Shown one piece after another: positions 1-33,443 of a stretch of 63,498 nt of DNA. Location: NCBI GenBank assembly GCA_026023565.1, contig JAPETS010000073.1, forward strand, positions 1 to 63,498, read 5' to 3'. This DNA comes from Cirrosporium novae-zelandiae (lineage: Eukaryota). Within the stretch, counting starts at the first letter, position 1. The number at the start of each line of letters is the position of its first letter. Made by a program: the position numbers and the translations under genes. The notes under the pieces were generated by a model that ran no database searches, was not told the DNA's origin, and saw nothing but the letters and a program-made list of their open reading frames with translations.

Positions 1-96
1 AAAAAAAAAAAATAAGACTTATCTTTTTATTGCACTCCCTGCTGGCTGGCTCTAATCCTCGACGGAGTTAGCATGCATGCTTGCACCTACCCCTTG

Positions 97-155
97 TTCT
101 TATTAGCTTAATGGTAGAACAGGATATACCTAATCTTTTTATTTAGGTTCAAGTC
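97..155 (+). pseudogene. Truncated tRNA-Arg paralog (anticodon position CCT), 3' part displaced by a GC hairpin element
   Basis: Closely matches trnR(TCT) at 6145 through the T-loop (ttcttattagcttaatggtag...ggttcaagtc), then is interrupted by gggccctccgctacctaagcagtaatgct. Confidence 0.75.
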
Positions 156-380
156 GGGCCCTCCGCTACCTAAGCAGTAATGCTTGCTATTTTTTTTTTT
201 GCTTGTGCCTAGGGGGGAGGGGATAAAGAATTACAAAATTTAATAATAATAATTTGTGAATTATTTTACCTAATTTTTTTTTTAACTGTAAACTTTAAAA
301 CACAGGGCGAACTTTTTCTTCTTGCCTGGCCTGTTTAAGGTTTTGTTTTTTAATTTTAGAACTATAAAAAAAAAATTTAG

Positions 381-1592
381 ATGATATATAGCCCAACTCT
401 TATTTCTATAATTGAGGTTTTATTAGTAACAGTCCCAGCCTTACTCTCTGTAGCGTTTGTAACTATTGCGGAAAGAAAAACAATGGCAAGTATGCAAAGA
501 AGACTAGGTCCTAATACGGTCGGATACTGAGGAATGTTACAAGCATTTGCAGATGCTTTAAAATTATTATTAAAGGAGTATATTTCCCCTGCACAAGCTA
601 ATTTAATTTTATTTTTCTTAGGTCCTATTATTACTTTAATTTTTTCACTGTTAGGGTATGCTGTAATACCCTATGGTCCTGGTTTAACTGCAGGAGATTT
701 AAACTTAGGTATACTCTATATGTTAGCTGTGTCTTCTTTATCGACCTATGGTATATTATTAGCCGGATGATCGGCTAATTCCAAATATGCTTTTTTAGGG
801 TCCTTAAGAAGTACAGCACAACTAATAAGTTATGAATTAATTTTAAGTTCAGCCATACTTCTAGTAATTTTATTAACTGGTAGCTTAAATTTAACTGTTA
901 ATATTGAAAGTCAAAAAACAGTTTGGTTTATAATACCTTTATTACCTATTTTTATTGTATTCTTTATAGGATCTGTAGCAGAAACTAATAGAGCTCCTTT
1001 TGATTTGGCCGAGGCTGAATCAGAGTTAGTTAGTGGATTTATGACAGAACATGCTGCGGTAATTTTTGTTTTTTTCTTTTTAGCTGAATATGCTAGTATT
1101 GTTCTTATTTGTACACTAACTAGTATTTTATTTCTTGGTGGTTATCTTTTGGATTTTTTTCCTTTATTGGTTATTGAGATTTATAACAACGTAGTGTATA
1201 ACCAGGTTAATCCTTACGATATTTATGCTTTATACCCATTTGATCTTCATTATTCCTTATATATCTTTGACTGCATGCGGAGCACAGTAGTAAATTCTTA
1301 TATAAATTTATTTAATAATTGTTTAATTGAAGGTACATTTTATAGTTTAATATTAGGAATTAAAGCTTGTGTTATGATTTTTGTATTTATTTGAACGAGA
1401 GCCTCATTCCCTCGTATCCGTTTTGACCAATTAATGTCTTTCTGTTGAACTGTTTTATTACCTTTAGTGATAGCCTTTATTGTATTAATTCCTTGTATTT
1501 CACACGGTTTTGAATCTATTCCTTCAAATGTTTCTTTATTCTTTGTACCCTTACTTATATTAAAGGATAAAAATGTTTCTTGCCCCCTCTAA
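381..1592 (+). CDS. nad1: NADH dehydrogenase subunit 1
   Basis: ATG at 381; motifs [48 protein letters not shown]; open with TGA=Trp to TAA at 1590-1592. Confidence 0.97.
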
Positions 1593-1617
1593 AGACTTCG
1601 ACCTTAAACACATAAAA

Positions 1618-2040
1618 ATGTCGGATGACGAGTATAATCAATGGTTAACAGGCTTCAAGCCCCCCACCAGCCCCCAATAAGCCCCCACTCGAAGAGTGGG
1701 GGCTTTGGGGGCTAGGGTGGGGGCTTGGTGAAGGTAATTTTTATATAGGTATTACAGATAAAGGTTCTATTAATTTTTCTTATACAATCAAGTTGCATAT
1801 CGATGACTTAAAAGCACTAAAGTTTATTTAATCTCAACTAAGCCTCCCCCCCACCACCAAGCCCCCACGAGCCCCCCAAAGCCCCCACTCTTCGAGCGGG
1901 GGCTAATGGGGGGCTTGTGGAAGTATACAAACACCTATTACAGAATCAGCAGCTTATGGCCCCCTTTTTTTTTATATAAAAAAAAAAGGGGGGATAGAGT
2001 AGGAGGAATAAATCAGCTGTGTGATATTATTATTCCTCTA
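1618..2040 (+). pseudogene. Degenerate LAGLIDADG homing endonuclease behind nad1
   Basis: MSDDEYNQWLTGF-[GC insertion]-GEGNFYIGITDKGSINFSYTIKLHIDDLKALKFI*, with further GC insertions. Confidence 0.75.
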
Positions 2041-2104
2041 ACCCCCCACCCTTGTTTTCTTTGCTTGTTTTTTTTTCTAAAAACCGCTCCGCAGAAAAAC
2101 ACAA

Positions 2105-2190
2105 GCACTTGTTTTTTTTTGTGCGAAGCACTTGTTTTTTTTGTGCGAAGCACAAAAAAACACTAAAACACTAAAACACTAAAACACTAC
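2105..2190 (+). repeat. GTGCGAAGCAC hairpin array with (A)AAACACT tail; further copies near 40180, 41490, 42895, 43705, 61430, 63000
   Basis: Tandem ttgttttttt-gtgcgaagcac units followed by tandem cactaaaa. Confidence 0.9.
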
Positions 2191-2527
2191 AGCCCAAGCA
2201 TCCTGCTCTTTTTTTTTTTCATTCCATGCTTTGTTTTCTCTTCACATGCCAGGCTGAAAGAAAAAAACAGGCGGGGGGGGTTGGATGTTTTTTCTGCGGA
2301 GCGGTTTTTAAAAACATTAGGAGAAAACAAGGCGGGGAAAGGAGTACTCCTCCCTCCCCTCCCCCCTCGTCCAATACAGGACTAGTCTTAATTGTGGGTT
2401 AATATAAATTCAACAACGAAGTATCCACGAAAGTAAACAAAATTAGTCAACTAAATAAAACAACCCTGAAAGACCCGCACATCCCCCCGCTCCTGGCTGT
2501 TTTTGTTTTTATAATTTTTGTTTTTAG

Positions 2528-2638
2528 CCCCCCGCTACCTCAGCAGTAATGCTGAGGAGCGGGGGGGGGGGGATAAAAACAAAGCGCAAGCATGAAAAAA
2601 AAATAGCAAGCATTACTGCTGAGGTAGCGGGGGGGCCC
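2528..2638. mobile_element. GC-rich palindromic element family A (ccccgct[a]cctcagcattactgctgagg[t]agcgggg), more than 15 copies in both orientations
   Basis: Copies near 5910, 16967, 25300, 26709, 31604, 33445, 34512, 41744, 43608, 50474, 59499, 62047, 63442. Confidence 0.85.
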
Positions 2639-3413
2639 AAAAAAATATAAGACCCTTAGGACGTAACTGTGTCCGAATCCTTTGTGTGTCCATAATAAAC
2701 TCGAAAAAAAAATCACGTATATCGCCTACATCTTAAAAAAGCCAGCGCATGTTTTCTCAACCCCCCATGAGTTTTCTCCAGCCCCTTTTTTTATTTTAAG
2801 GGGCAAGGAGAAAACATGCAACAAATTTTGGTATCACCTCCCCCCCCCCTTGTTTTCTTCCATTGGAGTTGCTAGGCCTCACGGCCCGTTTCATTTTTGG
2901 TATTCCTTTCACATAACACTGAAAGAATTTAAGGTCCGCATTGGATATTTTTAATATTAATGCTAATATGCGTTTTCACTCTCAATTTCCGCGGTGTCGG
3001 CATAACAAATCAGTGCATGCTTTATTTTTTTTTTTTATAAAAAAATATTAGCCCGCAGTGAAATTTTTCATAGTGTTAGATTAATTTATTGCTCTTGAAT
3101 TGGTTACACCCAGGACGCTACTTGTCCCTGGGCATGGTTCGCCACGTGTCTATGTACGACCACCTTCTTGTCTAGGTTCAGAGTGTAATTGTACCCACAT
3201 GTGTCTTACTGCGGAATTTGTTCATTAGCGTAATCCCGTGTATTGAGTTTTTTTATCAGGAAAAGCTCGCATACGTCGGTTTTCAGCTCAGATTTTATGG
3301 AGTAAGATACATAAAAGATAGATTGATTTTTTTTTACTCTTTTGTCTAAATTTTAACAATAACATTATTTGCTTGCTTCACCTATGAATAATTTAAAGCT
3401 AATTATATCGCAA

Positions 3414-3485
3414 GGGATATGTCGTATCTGGTGATACATTTGGATTGCAGATCTAAAATATGGAGTTCGATTCCCCCGTATCCCT
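3414..3485 (+). tRNA. trnC: tRNA-Cys(GCA)
   Basis: Acceptor gggatat/gtatccc, anticodon loop ttgcaga, T-loop gttcgat. Confidence 0.92.
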
Positions 3486-3610
3486 GATTCTTAAACCTGT
3501 GTTCACTTTTTTCTTGCTTTAAGCAATGCGTAGTAGATCAGCGTGTTTTTTTTTTCCTGCGGGTAACCCTTGTTTTTAGGCTGTCCTCTTACTTACCCCA
3601 CCTTCTCCAA

Positions 3611-3681
3611 TTCTTATTAGCTTAAAGGTAGAGCAGAATATTCATAATATTAAGGTTCAGGTTCATGTCCTGAATAAGAAA
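3611..3681 (+). tRNA. tRNA-Arg-derived paralog with CAT anticodon (function uncertain)
   Basis: Same acceptor, D and T stems as trnR at 6145; loop ttcataa; T-loop ttcatgt lacks A58. Confidence 0.7.
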
Positions 3682-3881
3682 CCTGGGCCCCGGGGTCTCT
3701 GCAGTAATGCAGAGACCCCGGGGGATAAGTAAACATTATTCTACAATAAGTTTCATCTAGCCCGGCAAGCAATTTTTGTGCTGTGATCCTTATGCCGTGT
3801 TTTAAAAAAAAGTAAAAGGGCTGATTAAATAATAAAACGATTAACTAGTATAAGGGCTCCTATCTATAAATATTTAAATAA

Positions 3882-4109
<228 letters not shown>

Positions 4110-4219
4110 TTTTAAATTTAACAGATTGAAATTTAATTTTAGATTTAAGTAATTTCTTATTTACAGAGTATCCTTTAGACACAGAGCTTCTTTTAGCTCT
4201 GTGTTTACCGGTTGGTATA

Positions 4220-4354
4220 GAATCCATACGAAAGGCAGCTAGTGCTATAAATTCTGATATAAAGACTTTATGTAGACGAGAAAAATCCCAATTAGAAAAG
4301 GGTATAAATACTCCCTATAGAAATAAATACATGATAATTATTAAAAGACATTAA
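4220..4354 (+). pseudogene. C-terminal remnant of a GIY-YIG homing endonuclease (copy 1)
   Basis: ESIRKAASAINSDIKTLCRREKSQLEKGINTPYRNKYMIIIKRH*, paralogous to the copies at 4545 and near 5830. Confidence 0.8.
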
Positions 4355-4475
4355 TTAATCATGTTAATTATTAATAACACTTAGTTTAAATATGCTTAGG
4401 TTCGTTTAAGTACACTGGTTACTAAAGAAAAACAGTGGAGGAGTGGGAGGTGAGGAAACGAACCTAAGCATTCAT

Positions 4476-4517
4476 TTTGCTTTAATGATGGCATTCTTAT
4501 TATTATATGTGGCTTAA
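4476..4517 (+). pseudogene. Displaced atp9 3' end 1
   Basis: [13 protein letters not shown] with synonymous differences from atp9. Confidence 0.92.
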
Positions 4518-4544
4518 AAATAAATTTTTATGATTTAAATCTTA

Positions 4545-4780
4545 TAAAAACTGCAGCGGCTAATAGGGTAAAACCCCCTGTACCAGGCTTAGAGGTAGAA
4601 AATACAGACCTTGAAACTAAAGTAACATCTACATATGAATCCATACGAAAAGCAGCTAGTGCTATTAATTCGGATATAAAAACTTTATGTAGACGTGAAA
4701 AGTCTCAACTAGAAAAAGGTATTAATACACCCTATAGAAATAAATACATGATAGTTATTAAAAGAACATCTATTATTTAG
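4545..4780 (+). pseudogene. C-terminal remnant of a GIY-YIG homing endonuclease (copy 2)
   Basis: KTAAANRVKPPVPGLEVENTDLETKVTSTYESIRKAASAINSDIK... Confidence 0.8.
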
Positions 4781-4890
4781 AGTATGTTAGTTATTAATAG
4801 CACTTAGTTAAAATAGGCTTAGGTTGTTTAAGTACATTTATTATTAAAGAAAATCAGTGGAGGAGTGGGGGGCGAGGAAACAAACCTAAG

Positions 4891-4932
4891 CTTGCGGTGA
4901 TGATGGCTTTCTTATTATTATACGTTGCTTAG
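4891..4932 (+). pseudogene. Displaced atp9 3' end 2
   Basis: [13 protein letters not shown]. Confidence 0.9.
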
Positions 4933-4939
4933 TTACTGA

Positions 4940-6100
4940 TGAAGGCCTTGCCTTATTAAATTCTATAAGTCCCGCAATAGTTTATATAGGTTTAATCAAA
5001 AGATTAGCTATAAATTTAGAAACGTGTTATGTGTATGGTTCAAATTCTACTGAATATTCTGAAAACTGCAGTTTTATGAGTAAAACCGCTGCTTATATCC
5101 CCTTAGAAGCTTATTCACAAATTCTGCTCGTATGCAAATTAGGTATTAAGACATATAATGATCTATTAATACCCGAGCTTTGATTCGTGATGATAAGCCC
5201 CCGCCGGGTAGTTTTCGAGCCCCTTTTTTTTTAAGGGGCTAGAAAACTCGCGGGGGCTTGGGAAAGTTGGAGTTTATTGTTGATTTAAGAAAGTTAATGG
5301 TAAATTATATATAGGTAGTGGTAATCCCTTATATCTGAGATTAAGTGATTATTATCAGGACTGGTATTTATCCAAACGTTCTAATCTATACATAATTAGA
5401 GCTTTAAGTAAATACGGAAGGTGTAATTTTTGTCTTGTTATTTTAGAGTACACTACTGGCGATCTCCTAGCCCCAACCAAAGGTTGGGGCTTGGGTGTGA
5501 ACAAAAAGAATTGATTTACTTAAACCCGAGTATAATATTAATCCTGTAGCAGGTAGCTCTCTGGGGTATAAATACACTATAGAAAGTAAAGCTAAGCTTA
5601 AAAAGTTAGCCTAGCCCCTGGGGCTGGAGAAAGTACAGTGAAAAAGTTAAACAACTTATGAGTGAATCACGTAAAGGTGTAAATAACAAATTTTACTCCC
5701 TGCGGAGTAAAACTCACACTGAAGAATCTTTAATCCTTTTAAGAGCTGCAGCAAAAAATAGAAAAAATTTTACCAGTTCCAGGTTTTGAAGTAGAAATTA
5801 CATATTTAAACACTAAAATTACTACTACGTACGAATCTATATGGAAAGCAGCTAGTGCCATTAATTCAGATATTAAATCATTATGTAGGCTCCGTAATGT
5901 TTTTTATATCCCCCCGCTCCTCAGCATTACTGCTGAGGTAGCGGGGGGCCCGAACAAAAACCGCTCCGCAGAGAAAAATCCCAGTTAGAAAAGGGTATTA
6001 ACACACCTAGCCCCCTTTTTTCTCCAGCCCCTTTTTTAAGGGGCAAGGAGAAAACAAGGGGGCTAGAGGTAGATATATGAGAGTGTTTAAAAGATCACAA
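4940..6100 (+). pseudogene. Degenerate GIY-YIG homing endonuclease (copy 3) with several GC insertions
   Basis: [45 protein letters not shown] segments with frameshifts. Confidence 0.85.
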
Positions 6101-6102
6101 TA

Positions 6103-6123
6103 TTTGCGTTAATGATGGCATTC
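6103..6123 (+). pseudogene. Displaced atp9 3' end 3 (truncated)
   Basis: tttgcgttaatgatggcattc = FALMMAF. Confidence 0.75.
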
Positions 6124-6144
6124 TATACAAACATAGCACTCCTA

Positions 6145-6215
6145 TTCTTATTAGCTTAATGGTAGAGCAGGATACTTCTAATATCTAGATCCAGGTTCAA
6201 GTCCTGAATAAGAAT
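6145..6215 (+). tRNA. trnR: tRNA-Arg(TCT)
   Basis: Acceptor ttcttat/ataagaa, anticodon arm ggata-cttctaa-tatct. Confidence 0.93.
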
Positions 6216-6604
6216 ATTCGGTTAGGTAATTATATATAAACAATGGATATATATGTTTTAAGACTATTTCATTTATTTTTTTCAAATCTTTTAATATTAT
6301 TACTTTTATTTAATAGAGCTGCGAAGCCAGCATACTAGACACATCGGCACTCCGTATAAAAAAAAAGTCGTAATTACGAAGCCTTAAATATATATTTTTT
6401 TTAGGGCTTGCTTGCTTGTTTTCTCTCTAATTAATTAGGCCGGCTCCGGTTTTTTTGTTCTTTATGCATGCATGTTTTATTTTTTTTTTTTTGCTTGTGT
6501 TTTTCTGCGTGTTTTCTAACTCCGTTAGGAGAGAAAACAACGCAGAAAAACAAGCGCTTCGCACAAAAAAAAAAATTATCCAGCCCAAAATAGAAATGAT
6601 CATT

Positions 6605-6654
6605 AAACATAATTTGCTCTAGAGATGTCTAGAGCGTAACTGATGAAGAAAATT
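6605..6654 (+). promoter_or_regulatory. Conserved 50-nt structured motif upstream of nad4 (second copy at 36587-36636)
   Basis: Collinear with the second copy; 8-bp hairpin with three compensatory pair changes. Confidence 0.6.
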
Positions 6655-6679
6655 GTTCTTAATTTATTATCTTTTTTTT

Positions 6680-8877
6680 ATGTTATATTTATTACTAATT
6701 ATCCCTGTTATAGCTCTATTGTTACTTGTTTCAGATGTATCCTTATTTACTAAAGGTCTAAAACTATTAAAAATAAAAAAGACTGTATTATCTTTTTTAA
6801 TTGCAGTTCTATTTTTTTCTTTTTTTTTTTTTTATTATGTATGATTCTAGTTTTGAGCAGTTTCAATTTGTTACAGATTGTTTAAATTTAAGCTTTTTAG
6901 GTTTTTTTTTAGGATTTGACGGTTTGTCTCTATATTTTTTTTTATTAACAGCTACAATAATGCCTATCGCTCTTATCTCTAATTGAATCTCTATAAGTGC
7001 AAAAGTAAAAATATTTCTTCTATTAATTTTATTACTTGAAATGTTATTATTGGCAGATTTTTTAGTTTTAGATATTTTATTGTTTTATATCTTCTTTGAA
7101 AGTATATTACCGCCTTTATTTTTACTAATTGGATTCTGAGGGTCTAAAAAGAGAGTAAGAGCTAGCTATTATCTGTTTTTATTTACATTATTCGGATCGT
7201 TATTTTTATTACTTTCTATTCTTACAATGTATTCTATCATGGGAACAACAGATTTCGAGGCACTATCTAAAATAAATTATGATGATGATACCCAAAATTG
7301 ATTATTTTGGGGTATTTTTATAGCTTTTGCTGTTAAAACACCGCTATACTTCTTAAATACTTGATTGTTAAAAGCGCACGTGGAATCACCTTTGATCGGA
7401 AGTGTGATATTAGCTGCTATCGTCTTAAAACTAAGTCTATATGGAATATATCGATTAATGTTGCCTTTATTATCTAGAGCTTCCTTAATTTTTTCATCTA
7501 TGGTATATGCTGTAAGTGTTGTTACTGTTTTCTTTGCTTCTTTTAGTACTTTAAGAACTATAGATGTAAAAGAGTTGATTGCTTATTCTTCTGTATGCCA
7601 TGCTGCTGTTTATTTAATGGGTAGTTTTAGTAACACAATTCAAGGAATAGAGGGTGCTATATCTTTAGGATTAGGTCATGGTTTTGTTTCATCTGGTCTT
7701 TTTATATCTGTAGGAGGTATTTTATATGATAGATCTCATACAAGATTGATAACTTATTATAGAGGTGTGGGGCAAATGATGCCTATATTTTCTATATTAT
7801 TCTTTATTCTTTGTTTAGCTAATTGTGGTACACCTTTAACATTTAACTTCCTAGGTGAATTTATGAGTCTTTATGGTTCTTTTGAAAGATTGCCTATTAT
7901 GGGTGCTTTAGCCTGTTCTTCTATTGTATTATCTGCAGCATACACTATGTATATGTTTAATAGAATTGTATTTGGTGGTGCTTTCTCTAAATACTTTAAT
8001 TTTAATATTCCTGACATTAATAAAAGAGAATTCTTTATAATATTACCTTTGGTTTTAGTAACTATATTATTTGGTATATATCCTGACCCTATTTTAAGTG
8101 GTTTACATTTCACTGTATCTCATCTAATTTATTCTTGCAGTTATCCTGGTGATGTTTCTCTCGCATTTCTACCCTTTATAATAAAATCTGCTTCTTGTAT
8201 GCGGAGCACAAAAAAAAAATTCAGATCACAAGCAGCAAAAGTCATAGATTACGTTAAAGGTTTTTTTTTTATTCATTTATCAACTATTATATATATTAGT
8301 TTCTTTATATATAGTTTTATAGAACTAACACAGACTATACTATTTTATTGTGATATTGCGACAGGTTTAATTACAATACCTCTTCTTACATATATGTATT
8401 TTTATAATAAAATAAAACAGTATTTCATTTCTTATTTTTTTTCTTTAGATATTGTTAAAATCTCTTTTATTATCTTTAAAGAAAATGGATTTGTTAAAGC
8501 ATTGCCAACTGTTTGTAGATATTTATATTATAGTATTTTAGATTTTATATATATTCATAGATATATTATAGTATTCTTATTTCTTGTTACTATTTATCGA
8601 ATTGTTTATTTTCCTGCGCAAGCGACTGATTTTTTTGTTTGGTTATTATTACTTTTAATTTGTATTTTATCTCTTTTTTCTGGGTTAATTTTATTAATTT
8701 ATGTTCTTTTTATTAACAAAAATTTAAAGAATAATCATCCTTTATTATATTTTGTTTGTATTATTACCTCTATATTTTTCTTAATTCTATCTGTTTTATT
8801 ATGATTCATATGTTTATCTTTACTAAAAAGAAAATTGAAATATCTTCTAAATGTAACCGGAGGAAATGCTCCAAATG

Positions 8878-8932
<55 letters not shown>

Positions 8933-9440
8933 TAATAATTTTGATTATTACCACAATGATCTTAATGGTCAAAATAATAATAATTCTAATTATAATCCCA
9001 ACAATAATAATAATAACAATAATAATAACCAGAATAATTTTACCGTGTCTTCAGAAACAACAGATAATCAAAGAAAATATAAATCGAGTGATGCTGACAG
9101 GCTTAGCGCCAAAAGATCTAAAGAAAGAGAACAAGCGAGTGATATGAACTGGTTAGAGGTGGCAACTTCTGGACTAAAGAGGGAGATTTTGGATGATGTA
9201 GTCGCAAGGATGGAAATCACCAGAAAGATGAAAAAAGAAATGGCGACGAGCGAAAGGTACCCTATTCCCAAGTGTAGTGATGATTTATTAAATCTTAAGC
9301 CAAGGGAGAAATTGGTTATCTTAGAGCATTTACAGACATTTCATCGGAATTCTGTGTATTTACGGCATGTAGCGGATCAAAGAAACTTCTGACGTGGTTT
9401 AAAGCTAACGGATGAATTTATAGATGTATTAAAAAAATAA
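6680..9440 (+). CDS. nad4: NADH dehydrogenase subunit 4 with an apparent frameshift in a T14 run (6820-6833) and a ~430-aa in-frame C-terminal extension
   Basis: LGFDGLSLYF, WLLKAHVESP, KELIAYSSVCH, NFLGEF; core ends near 8135 but the frame stays open (TGA=Trp) to TAA at 9438-9440. Confidence 0.93.
8878..9032 (+). repeat. (AAT)n microsatellites encoding poly-Asn in the nad4 extension
   Basis: About 20 consecutive AAT/AAC codons plus shorter runs. Confidence 0.95.
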
Positions 9441-10094
9441 TTGTTTTTTAACTAATAATGCTAAGAACATTATGTAATACTTTATTTCGGCTCCTTGTGA
9501 TACATTTAGATTGTAGGCAGTAAAAAAAAAGATATTTTTTTTTTTCTGCGTGCTTTTATCCCCCCCTGCGCTTCGCGCTCCAGCCCCCCACCTTTCCACG
9601 AGGATCACAGGCTGGCGGTAGTTTTTTCTTTTTTTTTTTCTTTTAGAAAACTAGGGGGGGGGGGGCTAGGATCACAGGCAGGTTCACAGTATTAAAGTGA
9701 TAGTTTCTATTCCTCTGGTTGCGGAGGACTCCGTAGGGAACCACCCTAGCCCCCCCCTAGCCACCTGCTCTTTTTTTTTCATTCCATGCTTTGTTTTCTC
9801 TCCACAAGCCAGGCTGAAAAACAGGGGTGGCTAGGGGGGGGGGGGGGCTTATTTAAGTGTGATAAGCATTACTCGGCGAAGCACACATTCTTATATAATC
9901 TTCAAATATAAAAAATATATATAATACAAAATAGATTCTATATATTTTTTTTTTACTTAGAAATAAGTGAAATGACCCGACAGTGTGAAGAGTGCAGGAA
10001 ACTTCTCAACAACTTATCTATGCTGAATAGCTTTTTATTTTAACTTAAAAGTTTTAGCTTTGCTCCGCCATGAAATTCTCTAGCTCCGCAACCA

Positions 10095-10166
10095 GAGACT
10101 TTAATTTAACGGTAAAATATGTGATTCTTAATCATCAGTATATGGGTTCAAATCCCGTAGGTCTTA
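10095..10166 (+). tRNA. trnK: tRNA-Lys(CTT), paralog of trnK(TTT) at 50253
   Basis: Nearly identical body; anticodon loop ttcttaa; substitutions keep the stems. Confidence 0.75.
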
Positions 10167-10499
10167 ATCTTTTTTTTTTTCGTTCGTGTTAGAGGGAGGT
10201 GTCTTAAAGTTATTATTAGTACTAAAAATCCTTAATTGTTTTGTAGCATTAGCCCCCCTATAAAAATCGGTGGTTCCTAGCTCCAGAGAGGCTGCTTGCT
10301 TGGCTCCGTCATCCAAAACAACCAAATTCTGGGATTTCAGTCCTCCCCTCTCTAACTGGCGGAGTTGGGGTTAGTCGGTCCCCCTCCCCCCCCTATGATA
10401 GGGATAAGGATAGTAACGTAAAGATTCCACTTGTTATGTCATCAAGTCTTAAGAAAAAGACTATTTCTATCTAGTCAATCAGAATTTCATTCACCGGGC

Positions 10500-10680
10500 A
10501 TTCCTTCTTCCCCCCCCCCCTGCTTCGCCTGCTTTCGCCTGCTTGCTAATTTTGTATTTCTGGGCCCCTGGCTCTGCAGCAAGCCCCCATTAGCCCCAAT
10601 TTTAATTGGGGGCTAGTGGGGGCTAGGGGGATATAAATAAAAACAAAAAATAAGGGACAGGCGAAGCAAGCAAATCTTGC
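10500..10680 (+). repeat. ~180-bp composite dispersed repeat (copy near 41075-41270, partial near 14570)
   Basis: Shared ccctgcttcgcctgctttcgcctgcttgctaattttg...gggacaggcgaagcaagcaaatcttgc. Confidence 0.85.
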
Positions 10681-11394
10681 AGGCCTTATGAAAAAAATTA
10701 GCCAGCAAAAAAAAAAAGGGAAGCCAACACGCAGGGTGCTTCGCCTAAAAGAATCCTGCGGCGTACAGAACTTTATAGAGGTAAAAACCTTTAGGTCTCT
10801 TTACCCTAACCCCCCCCCCTAACCCCCACCAGAGGTGGGGGGTTGGGGGGGGGGTTTCTGGATTTTATTATGATATATTGTATACAGTCTAATATAAGAC
10901 TTCTGGTTTTTTTTTTATTTAATAAGATGTCTGCTTATTTCTTAGTATGTTTTTTTTTATAAAAAAAAAACACAAGAAAAAGGAACGTTGCTTTTTTTTT
11001 TGCTCGCCTAGAAGCTAAGCCCCCCCCACCAAGCCCTAGCCCCCCAACCTTAGGTTGGGGGCTTATTCCTTAACTTCGTAGGATCTAGCAAAAAGAGATG
11101 CTGGGCTCCTGAACTTCGTAGGCTGTGCTAACTCCTTGCATGTGGTTGTTTTTTTTTCTTGCACTCCCTCCCTCCCCTCGGTACTCCGTACTCCGTAGAG
11201 GCGAGTCGAGCACAGGCTGCTTGTGCAATCCTTCGGCAGGAGTAAGAAAAAACACCACAGCACTCCGCAGGGAGCAAAAAAAAAAGGGCTTAAGAAAGAA
11301 AACACAGGGTTTTTTCTCCTTTAGTTTTTTCTAACAAACATCAAGAATAATAAATATTATATAAAAATAAAATTAAAAAAATTAAAAATAAAAA

Positions 11395-12618
11395 ATGAGA
11401 ATATTTAAAAGTCATCCTTTATTAAAAATGGTTAATTCATACTTAATAGATTCGTCACAACCTTCCAACATTAGTTATGCTTGAAATTTCGGTTCTCTAT
11501 TAGCATTTTGTTTGGGAATTCAGATAGTGACTGGAGTCACTTTAGCTATGCATTACAACCCTAGTGTATTAGAAGCGTTTAATTCAGTTGAGCATATTAT
11601 GCGAGATGTAAACTATGGGTGATTAATCCGTTATTTACACTCAAACACAGCCTCAGCTTTCTTTTTCTTAGTATATCTACACATCGGTAGAGGATTATAC
11701 TATGGATCATATAAAGCACCCAGAACTTTAGTTTGAACAATTGGAACTGTAATATTTATTTTAATGATAGGTACAGCTTTCCTGGGTTACGTTTTACCTT
11801 ATGGTCAAATGAGTTTATGAGGTGCTACTGTTATTACTAACCTTATGAGTGCGATACCTTGAGTTGGACAAGATATAGTTGAGTTTATCTGAGGTGGCTT
11901 TTCAGTTAATAACGCTACTTTAAATAGATTCTTTGCTTTACATTACCTATTACCTTTTATCTTGGCTGCTCTAGCTTTAATGCATTTAATAGCACTACAT
12001 GACAGTGCTGGGTCAGGGAATCCTTTAGGTGTTTCAGGTAATTACGATAGATTACCTTTTGCTCCTTATTTTCTTTTCAAAGATTTAATTACTATCTTTA
12101 TATTTATCTTAGCTTTATCTGGCTATGTTTTCTTTATGCCTAACGTTTTAGGTGATAGCGAAAATTACGTTATGGCTAACCCTATGCAAACTCCCGCAGC
12201 GATAGTTCCGGAGTGATATCTTTTACCTTTCTATGCCATATTACGTTCTATACCTAATAAATTATTAGGTGTTATTGCAATGTTTGCAGCAATCTTAATG
12301 TTATTAGTTATACCTTTTAGTGATTTATCTAGATCAAGAGGTATACAATTTAGACCATTAAGTAAAATAGCTTTTTGAATATTTGTTGCTAATTTCTTAG
12401 TTTTAATGATATTAGGGGCTAAACACGTAGAAACTCCATTTATAGAATTAGGACAAATATCTACTACTTATTATTTTGCACATTTTTTTATCATAATGCC
12501 CCTTATTAGTCTACTTGAAAATAGTTTAATGGAATTAGGGAGTTACCGTTTGATACGTTTAAATTTAAGTCAGAAAAAAAAACCAGATGCAAGACAAAAT
12601 CTAACACGGTGAACTTAG
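11395..12618 (+). CDS. cob: Apocytochrome b (no introns)
   Basis: [11 protein letters not shown] start; [27 protein letters not shown]; stop TAG at 12616-12618. Confidence 0.98.
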
Positions 12619-14252
12619 GCGAAGCCCTCAGTTTTAAGGATAAGGCAATAGATATTGGTTTTTATGTGCTATTGTTTTTAATATTAGGGGCTGCAATGAT
12701 TTTTCATATAGATGAGGTCCTCTTGCATATGATGCCGACAGGTAGCCAGAATGCTAAGAATCCAGGGGGTTCTACTACTCCATGGTATGATCCTAATTCA
12801 GAGACTAATTTTTCATGGTGTTATTCAAGGGAGTTTTATATAGGGGATTCTTTTTTTAATGATGGTTCTTCTACACCTGGGAATTTACCTGCTTCAGAAA
12901 ATTCTCTAGGGGATTCTACTAATCTAAGGAATTCTACTAATCCAAGGAATTTTGCTGTTCCGGGTAATTCTACTGCTCCAAGGAATTTTCTTACTTCAGG
13001 GTATTTTCCTACTTCAGGAAATTCACCTGTTCTAGGGAATTCTCCTATTTTAAGGTATTATCCTAATCCAATGAGTCCTACTACTCCAGGTAATTCTACT
13101 GTTCCAGGGAATTATATTCCTCAAAGGAATTCTCCTATTCTAAGAAATTTACCTAATTCAGGAAATTCTCCTACTCTAGAAAATTCTACTTTTTCAGGGT
13201 ATTATCCTAATCCTATGAATTCTACTGTTCCAGGTAATTCTACTGTTCCTGGGAATTATATTCCTCAAAGAAATTCTCCTATTCTAAGAAATTTACCTAA
13301 TTCAGGGTATTCTCCTACTCTAGGAAATTCTACTTTTTCAGGGTATAATACTAATCCTGGGAATTATATTCCTCAAAGAAATTCTCCTATTCTAAGAAAT
13401 TTACCTAATTCAGGGAATTCTCCTACTCTAGGAAATTCTACTTTTTCAGGGTATAATACTAATCCAGGTAATTATAATACTCAAAGGAATTCTCCTACTT
13501 TAGGGAATTCTACTATTCCAAGGTATAATAATAATCCAGGGTATTATCCTACTCAAATCAATTCTCCTACTCTAGGGAATTCTAGTCTTCCAAGGTATAA
13601 TACTAATCCTGGTAATTATAATATTCAAAGGAATTCTCCTACACTAGGGAATTCTGTTGTTCCAGGTAATTATACTAACCCTGGTAATTATACTACTCAA
13701 AGGAATTCTCCTACTCTAGGGAATTATGATGTTCCAAGATATAACACTAATCCAATGAATCCTACTATTCCTGGTAATTCTCCTACTCAAGGGAATTACA
13801 TTGCTCCTGGAAATTACCCTACACCAATGAATCCTAATATTCCAGGTAATTCTACTTCTCAAAGGAATTACACTTCACCAGAGTATATTTCTGCTCCATG
13901 GGATAATACTTTCCCAAGGACTTATATTACACCAGAGGAGTATAATCGAAGGTTAGTAGTGTCAGAATGAAAGCGTTCTATGCTTTATAATATTGGAGAG
14001 CGCTTAAGTATTATAAACGCAGAGGACGAAAAGAAGCCTTCATTCCCTGTTAGTACTTTAGGTGACACTCGTTTAGCCTTAAGTGACCAAGAAAAGGTAC
14101 TTGTAAAAGAACTTATGCTAAGAGAAAAAAAATATTTTGGCGGTGCAATTCGTCAATTAAATTCCGGACAAGGCGACAACTGACGTGTGGTTGTTAACAC
14201 TAAAAGATTACGGCAATTTTTAACAGAGCCTGCGCAAAATGTAGATAAGTAG
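12609..14252 (+). CDS. Orphan ORF (~547 aa): TM segment, N/S/P/T/G-rich repeats, C-terminal domain; overlaps the cob end in the -1 frame
   Basis: Track ORFs 12609..13970 and 13980..14183 join through TGA=Trp to TAG at 14250-14252; frame open from 12525; start uncertain. Confidence 0.75.
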
Positions 14253-14801
14253 TTTTTTCCAGGATTAGTTGCTTTACCTAGCTCCTTTTTCATTTCTTCT
14301 GCCTTATTTCCTCAACCCCCTTGTCTGATCTTCAGCCGCGACCCCTAAGATCTATATTATCTTTATTTCCCATAGATTTGTTATAACCTCCCCCCCGGGG
14401 CCATGGTCCTCTGCAGTATTGCAGAGGCCCATGGGCCTTTATCCCCCCCTTGCAGTACAAGTAGTAAAAAGACACTGCGGTATTTCGTTGTAGTTTGACG
14501 AAGAACTCTATAGATTTTTAAGTTTGTAACTAATATATGTACTTTTTAGATATATGAATGTGTATCACTTGTATTCCTTCTTTCCCCCCCCCAGCTTGCG
14601 CCTGCTTTCGCCTGCTCTTTTTTTTGCTTGCTTTCGCCTGCTCTTTTTTTTTGCTTGCTTGCGCCTGCAAAAAAAAAACAGTCTGTACCCCCCCCCAAAG
14701 CCCCCACTCTACGAGTGGGGGCTTGGACTGTTTTCTCTGTGGAGCGGTTTTTTATAAACACTAGGTAGGGGGCTTATTGAACTAAATCTTTTTTTTCAAG
14801 A

Positions 14802-15160
14802 TCATCCTTCTTTTTTGTTTTTTCTTGGTATGGAGCGCGCTATCCTCTCTTTGGGGGCCTAAAAAAAAAATCCTGACAATTAGGTCAGGAAGAATAAGAT
14901 GCTATTTTAGCTAGGATGTTACAAGAACAGGAGGAAGAGGAATTTATGACATGAAATCATATCCCTGCTTTAACACCCAAAGCAACAAAAGCCCGGCTGT
15001 TTTCTCTGCTGAGCGGTTTTTTATAAACACTAGGAGAAAACAAGGCGGGAGCTAGGAGGACAAACATAAAAACGACTCTGATGGCCCCCTTTTTTTTTTT
15101 TAATATAAAAGCCCCCAACCAAAGGTTGGGGGCTAGGGGGATATAGCAGGAGACGATTAG
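14802..15160 (+). pseudogene. Degraded tandem copy of the 15576..16217 ORF
   Basis: Matches ggagcgcgc, caggaagaa..gatgct..ttagctag..tgttacaaga and gcaggagacgattagtctttaaaaattgttgtc; has stops and GC insertions. Confidence 0.85.
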
Positions 15161-15328
15161 TCTTTAAAAATTGTTGTCTTTTTTTAAGTTATGGTTAGGT
15201 AATAATTTCTCTTTCTACTTTTCTTTTTTCTTGTTCTTTTAAAACAATCTACGTCCGAAAGCCGCTTTTCAGCATCTTAATGCCTGTATGGGGGTATTAG
15301 AAGATTTCGTTTAAACCGTTAATCTGCC

Positions 15329-15464
15329 CCCTAGCCCCCAAAGCCCCCACTCTACGAGTGGGGGCTTGGACTGTTTTCTCCTTGCCCCTTAAAATAAAAA
15401 AAGGGGCTGGAGAAAACAAGGGGGCTTATAAAAGCCCCCAACCAAAGGTTGGGGGCTAGGGGGA
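15329..15464. mobile_element. Composite palindromic element; inverted copy near 32900-33036, partial copies near 40546 and 42720
   Basis: Modules agcccccactc...gagtgggggct, ttttctccttgcccc...ggggctggagaaaac and agcccccaaccaaaggttgggggct in the same order. Confidence 0.85.
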
Positions 15465-15575
15465 TATGGTAAATCCAAAGCTTGTGATAAAAAATATAAG
15501 TACGAATATTATCTTGGGCATGTACTAAACAGTAAGGCTATACGTTGTCCTTATTTTTCTTTTTATAATAAAATA

Positions 15576-16217
15576 ATGCTAATAATGAATATATTTAATG
15601 TTAGAACTCCCTTAGGTTTATCTTTTACATATTGTGGTAGAAAATTTTCAACATCATCTTCTTTACTTGGAAAAGGTAAGGAGCGCGCCATAGACAATCT
15701 TCCTTTAGAGGAATCGGAGTCTATTAAAAAAACTCCTGAACAATTAGCTCAGGAAGAACATGATGCTCTTTTAGCTAGATTGTTACAAGAGGAGGAGGAA
15801 GAGGCCTTTATGACACGAGACTATAACCCTGATTTAACACCCAAACCATTAAAATCTAACGAGTTAGAAGGTTTTTATGACGAACATAAAGACAACTCTG
15901 ATCTTTATAATATAGATGACAAGGGTAGATTAATTAATTTTCCTTCCAGGAATACTTTTAAAGATTCTTCTCCTACAGAAGAAGGATCTTCTTCTGCTGA
16001 AGGATCTTCTTCTGCAGCTAAAGGTTCTTCTAGCGAGGGATCTTCTTCTGCAGCTAAAGGTTCTTCTAGCGAGGGATCTTCTTCTGCTGAAGGATCTTCT
16101 TCTGCAGCTAAAGGTTCTTCTAGCGAGGGTTCTTCCCTTTCAAAAGAAAGATCGTTAATAGACGATTATGCTGATGTTTCGACAGAATTTCCCGATTATA
16201 CAGCAGGAGACGATTAG
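15576..16217 (+). CDS. Orphan ORF213: basic/hydroxylated N-terminus, SSSAAKGSSSEG repeats, acidic C-terminal motif
   Basis: Intact ATG..TAG; ends SLIDDYADVSTEFPDYTAGDD. Confidence 0.75.
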   Translation: MLIMNIFNVRTPLGLSFTYCGRKFSTSSSLLGKGKERAIDNLPLEESESIKKTPEQLAQEEHDALLARLLQEEEEEAFMTRDYNPDLTPKPLKSNELEGFYDEHKDNSDLYNIDDKGRLINFPSRNTFKDSSPTEEGSSSAEGSSSAAKGSSSEGSSSAAKGSSSEGSSSAEGSSSAAKGSSSEGSSLSKERSLIDDYADVSTEFPDYTAGDD

Positions 16218-16290
16218 TCTTTAAAAATTGTTGTCTTTTTTTTTTTAAGTTATGGTTAAGTAATAATTTCTCTTTCGAGCGAAGCACCCT

Positions 16291-16428
16291 TTCTTTTTTG
16301 ATTTTAACCCCAAAGACTAGAACATTCTTTTTGGATTTTATCCCCAAAGACTAGAACAATCTTTTTGGATTTTATCCCCAAATACTAGAACATTCGTTTT
16401 GGTTTTACTCCCCATATACTAGAACATC
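16291..16428 (+). repeat. 34-bp tandem repeat, 4 copies, upstream of cox2
   Basis: Unit ttctttttggattttatccccaaagactagaaca. Confidence 0.9.
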
Positions 16429-16520
16429 TTCTAATACTCATCTAACGGTTTTAAACAATTAAATACAGCTCCTTTAAGGTTTAAAGACTTAAAAAGTCCC
16501 TTTCTTCTATATAATTAATC

Positions 16521-19500
16521 ATGTCTCGAATATTAAATACCCTAGAATTTTGTGATGCTCCAAGGCCCTGAGGTTTGTATTTTCAAGATAGCGCGAGTCC
16601 TCAAATGGAAGGAGTAGTAGAATTACATAATAATACTTAATATTTTTGTGTATAAGAGCCAAACTCCGGGGACCCCCTAAAGCTCTAGTAACCAAAGTTG
16701 TAAAGGAAACTTTGTAACCGGCCTGGTTAATGACTCAGGGTATGGTAATATCACTAGAGATGATGGAAACTGAAATGGGATATCGCGGATCTAAATCAGA
16801 CTATTTGTCTGTAAAAGAGCAACGAGCAGATGGTTCTTCAGGTTCATGTTATAAAATAACATGAAACTGTAAGGTGTGCTCTAGACGCTAAGAAATTAGT
16901 TTTTGAGTTAAATAGATTTTATACTTTACATTTCTTCAATCCCAGTTTATTTTATTTCAGATCCCCCACCCGCTCCTCGGCATTACTGCTGAGGACTCGG
17001 GGGGGGCCCAAAAAATAAAGAAATTAGCTGCCTCCGGAGAAAAAGACATTGAAATCAAATGTAGAAAATAAGTAGTAGGATTGAAAAAAAAATCACAACT
17101 ACTTTAAATATTTTTATATTTATGCCATAAAAACGTGGGGAAATTTCTTGTTGTAGATTATCTCGGTTTAATACTGTTTTTTAGGAAGTATATATTAATT
17201 ATACTTGAAATATTTCAGGTACTTTTTTTTATAACTTTGTAAAGTATTAGACAAATATATGGAAAATATTAAGAATATTCAACTAAATCTTAAACTTAAT
17301 CCATGGTATGTTACTGGTTTTTCAGACGGGGAGGCTTGTTTTCATATAGCTATTGGTAAAAACATTAAATATAAAAATGGCTTTTATGTAAATCCGGGCT
17401 TTTCAATAGTTTTACACAAGAAGGATAAAATATTACTAGAAAAAATCCAAGCTTATTTTGGGGGAATAGGAACATTGAAAACAAATGAAAAATTTGTTGA
17501 ATTTAGAGTATTTTCTATTAAGGATTTAAAAGTAATTCTTGATCATTTTGATAATTATCCTCTTAATACTAAAAAACAAATTGATTATCTGTTTTTTAAA
17601 GAAACTTTAGAATTAATAAAAAATAAAGAACATTTAACAGTAGAGGGTTTAAAAAAAATTGTAAACACAAGAGCCTCTATGAATAAAGGTTTACCGGAAG
17701 CATTAAAAAAAGCTTTTCCTAATGCTATTCCTAATACAAAACCTTTAGTTACAACACCAAAGGCAATGGATCCAAACTGAGTAGCAGGGTTTACTGAAGG
17801 CGAAGGGTGTTTTTTTATAAAAACACACTTAAGAAATAAAAGACTTAGTATTCAATTAGGTTGTCAAATTACTCAACATAACAGGGATATTATTCTCTTA
17901 AAAAGTTTAAGGGATTTCTTTGATTGTGGTAGATTAGAGCCAGCAGGAGAGTTCTCTCAAAATTTTTTTGTAACTAAACTATCTGATATCACTGAGATTA
18001 TTATTCCTTTTTTTGAAAAATATCCTCTAATTGGATCTAAAGCTAAAGATTTTAAAGATTGAAACAAGATCTCTGAATTAATGACATCAAAGGCTCATCT
18101 TACTAAAGAAGGATGTGAACAAATTCTTCAATTAAAATTAAGAATGAATTCATCAAGAACTTTAGAAAAATAATAGTTTTTCACTCCCACTCCCTCATTT
18201 TTTTTTTTTATATTTAATGTAGATAAATCCCAGTAGTTGTATTTAAGCAACTTAACCTAAAAAAAAAGAACTGTGTTAACATCATGGGTAAAGTTACTCA
18301 AAATTAAAGTTATAATCTAAACTTGTTTTTATCTTTACAATGAACTGTTAACAATTTGTTTATCTTATTACAATTAACAGTAAATAAAGGTTTCGCTCCT
18401 CGTTTTTTTTCTAGTAATTTCGAATATTTAAATTACGCTAAAAAAAAAAGGGTTATGCAAGGGAGTCCGACTAAAACAACAAGGTTGAAACGTTAGTCAA
18501 TTTTCCCCGAAGCCTGTAGATAAAATAAGACGGTAGAGTCGAATAATATAATGTTTTATTTAGTAATAATACTCTTTTCAGTCTCTTGAATACTTTTCTC
18601 TATAATTAGGAATTATAACCAAGAAAAGAATAAAATTTCACACAAGTATTTAAACCATGGTAAACAAAATGTGCCTACTCGAAAGTATTCTAATTTTAAA
18701 AGTAGCCCCTCAAATTATATAATATCTAACACTATACGTACTTATTCTACTTTACCTGAAAAAGAAAGTATCCCGGTTAAAGTCTATGAAGATGCTTATT
18801 CTATGAAAAAAGAAATTTTAAAGGAAAACATAGGCAAATCAGGGATTTATATGTGAACCAACAAACTTACAGGCGATATATACGTAGGACAATCATCTGA
18901 TCTCTCCAAAAGATTTAGAAAATATTTTACTGTTAGCTATATAAATAGTAAGAAAGGATTAAGAATCTCTAGAGTCTTAATAAAATACGGATATTCCAAT
19001 TTTTCTTTAACTATTCTAGAATATTGTAATATATCTAATTTACTTGAAAGAGAACAATATTATTTTGATAAATTAAAACCGCAGTACAATATATTAAAAA
19101 TAGCAGGTAGCTCTCTAGGTTATAAATCTTCGCCTGAAACTAGAGCTAAGATTAGTAAAGCTTTAAAAGGAATTTACATTGGAGAGAAATCTGCTCTTTT
19201 TGGTCGTTCACATATAGAAGAAACTAAGATAACAATGAGTTTAAAAAAAGCAGGTGAAAATAATCCTTTGTTTGGAAAAACTCACAGTGAAGAAACTAAA
19301 GATCTAATGAGACAAAAAGCTTTAGGTAGAAAACATTCTGATGAAACTAAATTAAAAATGAGCACAACACACGGAAATCCTGTAAACATATATGAGAAAT
19401 GTTCATCAGAAGGGTTTAAATTAATAGGTAGTTTTGTTTCAGCTAGAAGAGCTGCACTATTCTTAGGTATTAGTGGTAGTACTTTTATAAGATATATGAA

Positions 19501-20334
19501 TTCAGGGGCAATATATAAAAACAAATATAAATTTTCTTCTAAATAGTAGAAGAATATCTTAGAAAAACTACGAGTAAAATTTCACTATATGCTGGAAACT
19601 TCTAAAACCTGAGATACTATAATATAGTTTATATTATCAGTGAAAATTCTACAGGATGTAACAATGAACAATCAGCAGGAAACCAACGCATATTTATATG
19701 TTCTAGTGGGATCCTCAGAGACTACACGTGAAACAACCAGTTGTTAAATTTTCCTTCCCGTATACAGGAATCAAAAACAAAACGAGAGGTTGAAGATATA
19801 GTCCGTGAAACGACATTAATAGAATTAATTTGAACTATTACACCTGCATTAATTTTAATATTAATAGCCTTTCCATCTTTTAAACTTTTATATTTAATGG
19901 ATGAAGTTAGTGATCCTTCAATGGCAATTTTAGCAGAGGGTCACCAATGATATTGATCTTACCAGTATCCTGATTTTTTAAACAACGATGAAGAATTTAT
20001 TGAATATGATTCATATCTAGTTCCGGAAAGCGATTTAGCTGATGGTGCGTTAAGGATGTTAGAAGTCGATAATAGAGTTATAGTACCTGAGCTAACTCAT
20101 GTAAGATTTATATTAACAGCTGCAGATGTAATTCATAGTTACGCCTTACCTTCTTTAGGTATTAAGTCTGATGCTTATCCAGGAAGACTTAACCAAGCTT
20201 CTGTCTTTATTAATAGAGAGGGTGTATTCTACGGTCAATGCAGCGAGATATGCGGAATTCTACACAGTTCTATGCCAATTGTAGTAGAATCGGTATCTAT
20301 AGAAAAATTCCTTCTCTGATTAAATGAACAGTAA
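16521..20334 (+). CDS. cox2: Cytochrome c oxidase subunit 2; exons 16521-16628, 18542-18661, 19813-20334
   Basis: [37 protein letters not shown]; CuA motif [12 protein letters not shown]. Confidence 0.96.
16629..18541 (+). mobile_element. Group I intron (IC2-like), cox2 intron 1
   Basis: Exon ends in T, intron ends in G; core ggatatcgcggatcta, gagcaacgag, taaggtgtgctctag. Confidence 0.88.
17259..18173 (+). CDS. Double-motif LAGLIDADG homing endonuclease
   Basis: [13 protein letters not shown] and [12 protein letters not shown]. Confidence 0.93.
18662..19546 (+). CDS. GIY-YIG homing endonuclease in frame with cox2 exon 2
   Basis: [25 protein letters not shown]3-like repeats GKTHSEETK. Confidence 0.92.
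18662..19812 (+). mobile_element. Group I intron, cox2 intron 2
   Basis: Core atgctggaaac, aatcagcagg, tcagagactacacg, gaagatatagtcc; ends in G. Confidence 0.9.
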
Positions 20335-31439: not shown

Positions 31440-31835
31440 TCTTTCTAATTAGAATTGTTGAGTATGTGCGTCGTCTAAGTCTAAACCTCTTGGTAGCTTA
31501 TATCCCAAATACTGTTTGTACTCCAGAAAAAGGATAGGCGAGCAATAGTCATTCTTTTATATCTCTAGTTTAATCTACCGGTTGTTTTCTTGTTTTTTTA
31601 TATCCCCCCCGCTCCTCAGCATTACTGCTGAGGAGCGGGGGGGGGGCCAAAAAAAAAAAACAAGAAAACAACGCACTACTCCGTAGTGAGGGGGATATCC
31701 AATATTTTTTATCAGAAGCCCCTTTTTTTTAACCCCCTGCTCTGCGTTGCTGAAGGGGCCAAAAAAAAAGGGCTTATACTACCTTAGTCTATTTAATATT
31801 TTTATTGATTTCAATTATTTAAGTATTCTAAACGA

Positions 31836-32609
31836 ATGATTTACTCTTTATTTATAGAAATACCTAGTCCACTAGATCAGTTCCAAATTAGAGATTTATT
31901 TAGTATAAACGCGCCTATCTTAGCTAATGCACATATATCTCTAACTAATATAGGTTTATATTTAAGCGTCGCTACTCTAGTTATCTTTTTCGTTAATTTA
32001 TTAGCTACAAATTTTAATAAATTAGTTACAAACAGATGATCTTTAAGTCAAGAATCTACATATGCTACTATACATAGTATAGTTATAAACCAAATAAACA
32101 ACTCCAAAGGACAATACTACTTCCCTTTAATATATGCATTATTTCTAACAATTTTAGTTAGTAATTTATTGGGGATGATTCCTTATAGTTTTGCTATTAC
32201 AAGTCATTTTATATTAACATTTTCTCTTAGTTTTACTGTAGTTTTTGGTGCAACTATATTAGGTTTCCAAAAGCACGGTCTAGAATTCTTCTCTCTTCTT
32301 GTACCGGCTGGTTGTCCATTGGGATTATTACCTCTTTTAGTTTTAATTGAGACTATAAGTTATACTGCTCGTAATGTTTCTCTTGGTCTTCGTCTTGCTG
32401 CGAATGTAGTTGCTGGCCACCTGTTATTATCTATCTTAAGTGGTTTTACTTTTAGTATTTTATTATCTAGTGCTTTTGTTTTGGGGTTAATACCTCTAGC
32501 TTTTATAATCGCTTTTTCTGCTTTGGAGTTAGGTATAGCTTTTATCCAAGCTCAAGTCTTCGTTATATTAACCGCTTCTTATATCAAGGATGGTTTAGAT
32601 TTACATTAG
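31836..32609 (+). CDS. atp6: ATP synthase subunit 6 (a)
   Basis: SPLDQFQI, SLGLRLAANVVAGH, IQAQVF. Confidence 0.98.
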
Positions 32610-33299: not shown

Positions 33300-33443
33300 C
33301 AGTTATGCAGCTCTTGTTTTTTTTTTAGCTACTCCTGTTCCCCCATGAGTTTTCTCCAGCCCCTTTTTTTATTTTAAGGGGCAAGGAGAAAACTACCCAC
33401 GGCGAAGCATCCTGCTTTCGCCTGCTCTTTTTTGTTTCGACGA

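Follow-up and report, generated by a model that had tools for sequence, protein, structure and literature searches.

A 50-nucleotide hairpin element ahead of both nad4 and an rns intron endonuclease gene in the mitochondrial DNA of Cirrosporium novae-zelandiae

Introduction

Fungal Pet127 is a processive 5'-to-3' exoribonuclease that strong secondary structure partly inhibits, and the 5' end of yeast COB mRNA is set by a binding site for the protein Cbp1, which protects the transcript against Pet127 activity (PMC9014873). The LAGLIDADG-type ORFs of group II introns in fungal rns genes occupy intron domain IV or, in two families, domain III, and rns-788 and rns-952 are among the named families of such introns (PMC13190283). 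As far as the main text of that article goes, the terms upstream, promoter, translation, expression, hairpin, start codon and untranslated are absent (PMC13190283). Dispersed hairpin repeats of mitochondrial DNA, for which the repetitive hairpin-forming elements of sponges (PMC2800124) and the palindromic repeats of Fusarium (PMC7218506) serve as comparison cases, are a further class of short structured sequence relevant here.

The window analyzed in this study is a stretch of 63,498 nt of mitochondrial DNA from Cirrosporium novae-zelandiae, and both copies of the element described below come from this single genome. Mitochondria use mRNA-specific leaders and lack a general ribosome-binding site, and ORFs within rRNA introns have no upstream exon frame. 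Such an ORF would therefore need expression signals of its own. To our knowledge, the mechanism by which free-standing ORFs inside organellar rRNA introns are translated is largely unknown. Word searches of the open-access literature, which fall short of proving absence from print, found no description of a leader that a group II intron endonuclease gene has in common with a core gene.

Results

Gene content of the window

Genes were mapped with Pfam, ARAGORN, and Rfam under genetic code 4, and all those found lie on the forward strand (Table 1). The window does not contain cox1, nad2, nad3, or atp8. The best cob relatives are 89-91% identical; fusions of cob and cox2 are frequent among them, and those of these fusion proteins that bear a name come from Peltigera, which points to a probable lichen-forming ascomycete as the source. 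ARAGORN also reports tRNA-Lys(ctt) and tRNA-Ile(tat), at 10095-10166 and 39927-39998, beside tRNA-Lys(ttt) and tRNA-Ile(gat); the ctt and tat anticodons are unusual in a fungal mitochondrial tRNA set.

Table 1. Positions of the element copies, associated genes, and other features of the 63,498-nt window.
Feature	Positions	Strand	Remarks
nad1	381-1592	+	
tRNA-Cys, tRNA-Met		+	between nad1 and atp9 in the gene order
13-nt match to 3' part of element	4932-4944	+	0.14 matches expected by chance
Element copy 1	6605-6654	+	spacer between tRNA-Arg(tct), 6144-6216, and nad4; covariance model 77.5 bits
Copy 1 hairpin	6615-6636	+	arms 6615-6623 and 6628-6636; loop GAUG 6624-6627; outer pair U.G
ATG inside copy 1 (ATGAAGAAAATT)	6643-6645	+	read directly
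nad4	6680-9440	+	Proton_antipo_M, 1e-80
cob	11395-12618	+	
cox2 with introns; nad4L/nad5		+	after cob and before atp6
atp6 leader	31602-31825	+	224 nt; source or partner of second leader duplication; ends 10 nt before atp6 ATG
atp6	31836-32609	+	
Copy of atp6 leader	33443-33685	+	ends 12 nt before orf33698 ATG
rns with two introns	35075-39681	+	
Group II intron in rns	36049-37900	+	approximate extent; Rfam D1-D4 36049-36180, D5/D6 37826-37900
5' strand of stem closing ORF-bearing loop	36566-36586	+	pairs with about 37687-37714
Element copy 2	36587-36636	+	first 50 nt of ORF-bearing loop, rns group II intron; 76.6 bits
Copy 2 hairpin	36597-36618	+	arms 36597-36605 and 36610-36618; loop GAUG 36606-36609
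ATG AAG TAA inside copy 2	36625-36633	+	read directly
Double-motif LAGLIDADG homing endonuclease ORF	36658-37572	+	304 aa; two LAGLIDADG_1 domains
nad6; cox3 with introns; rnl with rps3		+	after rns

Two copies of a discrete 50-nt element

The original prediction described two gap-free 50-mers with nine differences, six of which make up three compensatory base-pair swaps, and both coordinates and sequences proved correct. The copies are identical at 41 of 50 positions (82%) and differ in columns 12, 14, 15, 28, 29, 31, 34, 38, and 45. The three double changes exchange G-C for A-U, U-A for C-G, and C-G for A-U. Each copy begins with a conserved single-stranded 11-mer, continues with a 9-bp hairpin (an 8-bp stem extended by an outer U.G pair) around an invariant GAUG loop, and ends with a conserved tail of 18 nt, which includes an AUG. 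The element is A+T-rich, with a G+C content of 28-32%. Predicted folding energies are -13.3 kcal/mol for copy 1 (z = -3.9; one of 200 dinucleotide shuffles equally stable) and -12.4 kcal/mol for copy 2 (z = -2.9; none of 200).

Resemblance at this level is not expected by chance. BLAST aligns the two copies with an E-value of 2e-9 over 53 nt, and a degenerate pattern for the element matches twice in the window against 0.00 matches expected from 100 shuffles. A covariance model built from the two copies and run unfiltered over the window on both strands returned these two sites only, both on the forward strand; it found no third copy, the next match having an E-value of 2. The flanking 25-30 nt are 20-33% identical between copies, compared with a background of 28 +/- 8%, and since identity inside the unit is 82% its edges must be viewed as sharp. 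Contigs assembled from a source-like DNA sequencing run, placed on window positions 1-20000, cover copy 1 without any listed difference. Contigs from DNA runs of two other organisms matched only conserved genes and tRNAs in the same interval, and none of them fell on copy 1.

The 3' segment had also been said to recur at position 4932, ahead of a remnant GIY-YIG gene. A 13-mer does match there, but as a third copy of the element the site was rejected as a probable chance match. Its first base doubles as the final base of the stop codon in the third copy of the atp9 3' end, and the match lies some 280 nt before the GIY-YIG remnant. Behind the atp9 gene itself (3882-4109), roughly its final 12 codons occur twice more, ending in stops at 4517 and 4932, and the remnant (5212-5523) that comes next is frame-broken and scores at the Pfam threshold. 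The atp9 3' repeats and the remnant together (3882-5614) are the trace left by an endonuclease gene's invasion of the atp9 3' end.

Base pairing is kept while the stem changes

When nine random substitutions were simulated in the element, 3 of 100,000 trials kept all nine pairs and also produced three or more double changes. Changes are concentrated in the stem, where 6 of 18 positions differ as against 3 of 32 unpaired positions (Fisher p = 0.044). A variable paired stem combined with a conserved loop and flanks is the pattern expected if the loop and flanks are read by sequence while the stem need only pair. A shuffle control for covariation, which has little power with two sequences, reached the observed value in 63 of 500 shuffles. 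An outer stem of AATTT and AAATT had been proposed to close both copies. The complementarity is indeed present at the two ends, with all five pairs invariant, but the stem was rejected: it never varies, and it is missing from the minimum-energy folds of all four segments folded.

Compensated stems are not confined to this element. At least 60 families of direct repeats are present in the window, and many consist of GC-rich hairpins found in both orientations. In one family, of the form GCCCCC-N4-loop-N4-GGGGGC, 11 of 14 copies are fully paired and show three types of inner stem, ACTC/GAGT (seven copies), AACC/GGTT (three), and AAAA/TTTT (one). Such compensation is thus normal among the dispersed DNA hairpins of this genome. 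Covariation alone therefore does not prove selection at the RNA level, and a cause at the DNA level is possible for the double changes in the element. Sites of this family include 1681, 14700, 15111, 32857, 33602, and 42739, with loops in both orientations, and a second GC hairpin family (CCCCCGCTCCTCAGCATTACTGCTGAGGAGCGGGGG) has 14 copies in the window. A long near-perfect palindrome at 6490-6575, 30 nt upstream of copy 1, carries repeat words from the GTGCGAAGCAC...TTGTTTTTT family. Matches to miRNA-like Rfam models near 6475-6576, far below cut-offs, belong to this neighboring GC palindrome.

Copy 1 precedes nad4

Copy 1 lies on the sense strand between tRNA-Arg and the nad4 AUG, and copy 2 lies on the sense strand ahead of the endonuclease gene. 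The original prediction put the ends of the two copies 21-25 nt before an ATG; we measured 25 nt to the nad4 ATG at 6680 and 21 nt to the endonuclease ATG at 36658, an A/T run following the element in each case. Read from ATG 6680, Nad4 has a normal N-terminus, similar in kind to that of a relative with 70% identity, which starts directly with M-I-L-F. No N-terminal extension is therefore needed. The ATG within copy 1 is 37 nt before ATG 6680, with a T8 run (6672-6679) between them, and that spacing puts it one base out of the nad4 frame.

The N-terminal frame that opens at ATG 6680 meets a stop, and the protein continues in the frame of ORF 6801-9440 after a poly-T run at about 6806-6838. This break may reflect a homopolymer error in the assembly, or the frameshift may be real; homopolymer lengths in this assembly are accordingly in doubt. 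Contigs placed on the window were reported as cut at 6804-6846, near the same run. The 3' part of the gene (8200-9440) encodes a C-terminal extension of about 400 residues, stop-free, in which hydrophobic segments occur along with long runs of Asn. Low-complexity ORFs of a similar sort lie at 12609-14252, built on 18-nt tandem repeats and overlapping the 3' end of cob by 10 nt, and at 21807-23546, with 102-nt repeats.

Copy 2 opens the ORF-bearing loop of an rns group II intron

A search with the endonuclease found 757 homologues, which share its two LAGLIDADG_1 domains; PF00961 is present in all 120 that were listed, and the best identity is 59%. The loop that carries the endonuclease ORF is closed by a stem of the form GG..AAGT / ACTT..CC. 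Duplex prediction finds this stem in the window and in six of eight related introns, the letters of the stem body differing between introns, and predicts a different pairing for the remaining two. Copy 2 starts at 36587, directly after the 5' strand of the stem ends at 36586, and it therefore marks the 5' edge of the ORF insert, not a ribozyme domain. Alignment with ten related introns shows core conservation stopping at ..TTGGATAAAGT, about 12 nt before copy 2, with variable sequence beyond. The original prediction would have fallen had the motif been an ordinary group II domain fragment copied next to nad4. That explanation is rejected, as copy 2 falls outside both the D1-D4 and the D5/D6 Rfam matches and beyond the conserved core. 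Nor does copy 2 pair with the intron segment downstream of the ORF any better than shuffled sequences do (148 of 200 shuffles perform at least equally well).

The ATG within copy 2 shares the reading frame of the endonuclease ORF, whose start lies 33 nt (11 codons) downstream. The TAA that closes this short reading frame is AAA in copy 1 (column 45), one of the three unpaired differences between the copies.

Search for relatives of the element

Endonuclease alignment was used to collect 80 homologous endonuclease loci from metagenomes. Fourteen of these were scanned with Rfam, and all 14 have a group II intron match and 12 an rRNA match. The covariance model that recovers both copies in the window gave nothing better than E = 6 in the 80 loci, and neither it nor short-word BLAST found the element at any of them. 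The element is also absent upstream of nad4 in the only nad4 relative found. That sequence belongs to a 21-kb contig titled as a Nocardioides MAG, which encodes fungal mitochondrial atp6 and nad4 and is mis-binned. Exact-pattern scans had no match in viral contigs (two patterns) or in contigs of prokaryote genomes, and endonuclease and nad4 queries found no relatives in viral contigs. The original prediction looked to homologues elsewhere for support; the 80 intron loci, the one nad4 relative, and the viral and prokaryote collections supply none. No close relative is among them, the endonucleases being at most 59% identical and the nad4 product 70%. Absence from such distant sequences marks the element as lineage-specific and does not mean that it is free of selection.

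A duplication of the atp6 leader

The sequence ahead of atp6 has also been duplicated (Table 1). The atp6 leader and its copy are 86% identical over 244 aligned columns, the copy containing an inserted GC hairpin. The ORF behind the copy, orf33698, encodes a hydrophilic protein of 226 residues that belongs to no Pfam family. A core-gene leader thus stands before an accessory ORF at least twice in the window, once in the atp6 and orf33698 pair and once in the nad4 and endonuclease pair, and the atp6 duplication fits a reading of the 50-nt element as a shared leader. We folded 17 gene starts, those behind the two element copies included, and by eye found no comparable hairpin module at the others.

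Discussion

The element is real and discrete, and it is probably constrained, with the level at which the constraint acts, RNA or DNA, uncertain. The original prediction of a selected, structured cis-element holds insofar as the unit has defined edges, is not a product of chance, and keeps its pairing; the covariation offered in its support is not diagnostic, as the GC hairpins of the same genome are also compensated.

The reading we put forward, although we would give it somewhat less than an even chance, is that the 50 nt form a 5'-leader module acting at the RNA level, which would mark or protect the 5' end of the mRNA or bring in a gene-specific factor, and which was copied between nad4 and the intron endonuclease gene. 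This reading draws on the near-equal sense-strand offset from two ATGs, the better conservation of the unpaired parts, the fact that copy 2 opens the ORF insert, and the comparable case at atp6. Both genes would be transcribed within long precursors, nad4 behind tRNA-Arg and the endonuclease gene inside the pre-rRNA or the excised intron RNA. Excision of the tRNA or release of the intron would come first, after which 5'-to-3' trimming by an exonuclease of the Pet127 type might halt at the module. The cause of the halt could be the hairpin, a protein that binds the conserved unpaired parts by their sequence, or the two together. A halt of this kind would set and protect the 5' end of the mRNA, and may hand the AUG to the mitoribosome. 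One copy would have been derived from the other through a short duplication, so that the selfish intron gene would use the same factor as nad4. A more specific version, in which a leader peculiar to nad4, serving nuclear factors as the binding or stop site for stabilizing and translating nad4 mRNA, was captured by the selfish endonuclease gene and expresses it by hijacking the host's nad4-specific control, is a speculative extension that we consider rather doubtful. On that version, the atp6 leader before orf33698 would point to leader capture as a general means for accessory mitochondrial ORFs to become expressed in this lineage.

The main rival is that the unit is a small, dispersed, A+T-rich DNA hairpin repeat with no role in expression, spread by insertion or short-patch recombination. 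Its complementarity would then be kept at the DNA level, through the needs of the copying mechanism or through templated correction of a quasi-palindrome, and it would be akin in kind, not in sequence, to the mobile palindromic elements of the genome. We regard this explanation as unlikely on the whole, while taking it seriously. Sharp edges on both sides, the 5-nt inverted repeat AATTT/AAATT at the ends, the wealth of direct-repeat families and GC-rich hairpins in the window, a GC family with three compensated inner-stem variants, and the lack of conservation in any relative examined all speak for such a repeat. It would, however, have to be a repeat with two copies in the window, where the GC families have at least ten, and with both copies in the same orientation 21-25 nt before a start codon, a placement that by rough estimate random insertion would give about 1% of the time per copy. 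Conservation is also higher in the non-palindromic flanks (11 nt and 18 nt) than in the stem, and no target-site duplication was seen at either copy. Were the unit a low-copy hairpin repeat after all, it would be another mitochondrial DNA hairpin that mimics RNA covariation, and a caution for motif scans.

Of two further explanations, a promoter does not account for the compensated hairpin, and a remnant start region does not account for its being kept. A mitochondrial promoter within the unit, which would include an internal rns-intron promoter driving the endonuclease gene, had been among the functions suggested. The core xTAGAGATGTC agrees at 9 of 11 positions with the Neurospora-type consensus TTAG(A/T)RR(G/T)(G/C)N(A/T) (PMC8979003), the unit stands upstream of two genes on the transcribed strand, and TAGAGATG occurs six times in the window, always on the forward strand, where 1.57 occurrences are expected. 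Against this, the other four TAGAGATG sites lie within coding or rRNA sequence, and the consensus is not enriched in the window (10 matches, with 18.5 expected). The looser core TAGARAKGK has 8 matches where 6.3 are expected, none of them before another gene start, and rns, rnl, cob, atp6, nad5, and cox3 all lack such a site upstream. Neither enrichment nor a family of such sites before other genes accompanies the match of the core, and we think a promoter very improbable. We are equally skeptical that the unit is what remains of an ancestral start region, the original 5' end of a mobile ORF (the hairpin, 6 nt, then ATGAAGAAAATT, encoding MKKI...) that an in-frame TAA has since spoiled in the intron copy and that lies beside nad4 by the accident of an old insertion. 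Related intron ORFs do begin MKK or MKN, and the ATG of copy 2 is in the endonuclease frame 11 codons upstream, separated from it by nothing but the TAA that reads AAA in copy 1. The ATG of copy 1 is a single base out of the nad4 frame across T8, in an assembly that has another frame break at poly-T. The nad4 N-terminus from 6680, however, aligns in kind with the M-I-L-F start of the relative, and copy 1 has no endonuclease remnant behind it.

If a core-gene leader module has been reused before an intron endonuclease gene, it would give a concrete and testable answer to the question of how intron ORFs are translated, and the module could serve as a handle for finding the cognate RNA-binding protein.

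Among known systems, the small self-cleaving ribozymes, another of the functions originally suggested, offer one likeness. Copy 1 has a hammerhead-like box, CUGAUGA, right after the hairpin, but in copy 2 this box reads CUCAUGA. Rfam scans of 6400-6800 and 36000-37950 place no family on either copy, with no ribozyme model matching the element at E <= 10 or at gathering scores, and a hammerhead or other small self-cleaving ribozyme is accordingly not supported. The intron that hosts copy 2 resembles the LAGLIDADG group II introns of fungal rns in having D1-D4, D5/D6, two LAGLIDADG_1 domains, and an ORF in a stem-closed terminal loop; it differs from them in the element, which none of the 80 related introns carries. 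With the dispersed hairpin repeats of mitochondria, including the GC families of this same genome, the element shares a short discrete unit, a hairpin, sharp edges, and compensated stems. It is unlike them in having two copies only, an A+T-rich composition, long conserved non-palindromic flanks, and a near-fixed sense-strand offset from ATGs. The Cbp1/COB-Pet127 system is like the proposed leader module in that a cis-element lies in the leader of a mitochondrial mRNA inside a polycistronic precursor, where structure or a bound protein could stop an exonuclease (PMC9014873). The proposed module stands much nearer its AUG (21-25 nt) than the yeast sites do, and whereas those sites are gene-specific, it is common to a core gene and an intron endonuclease gene.
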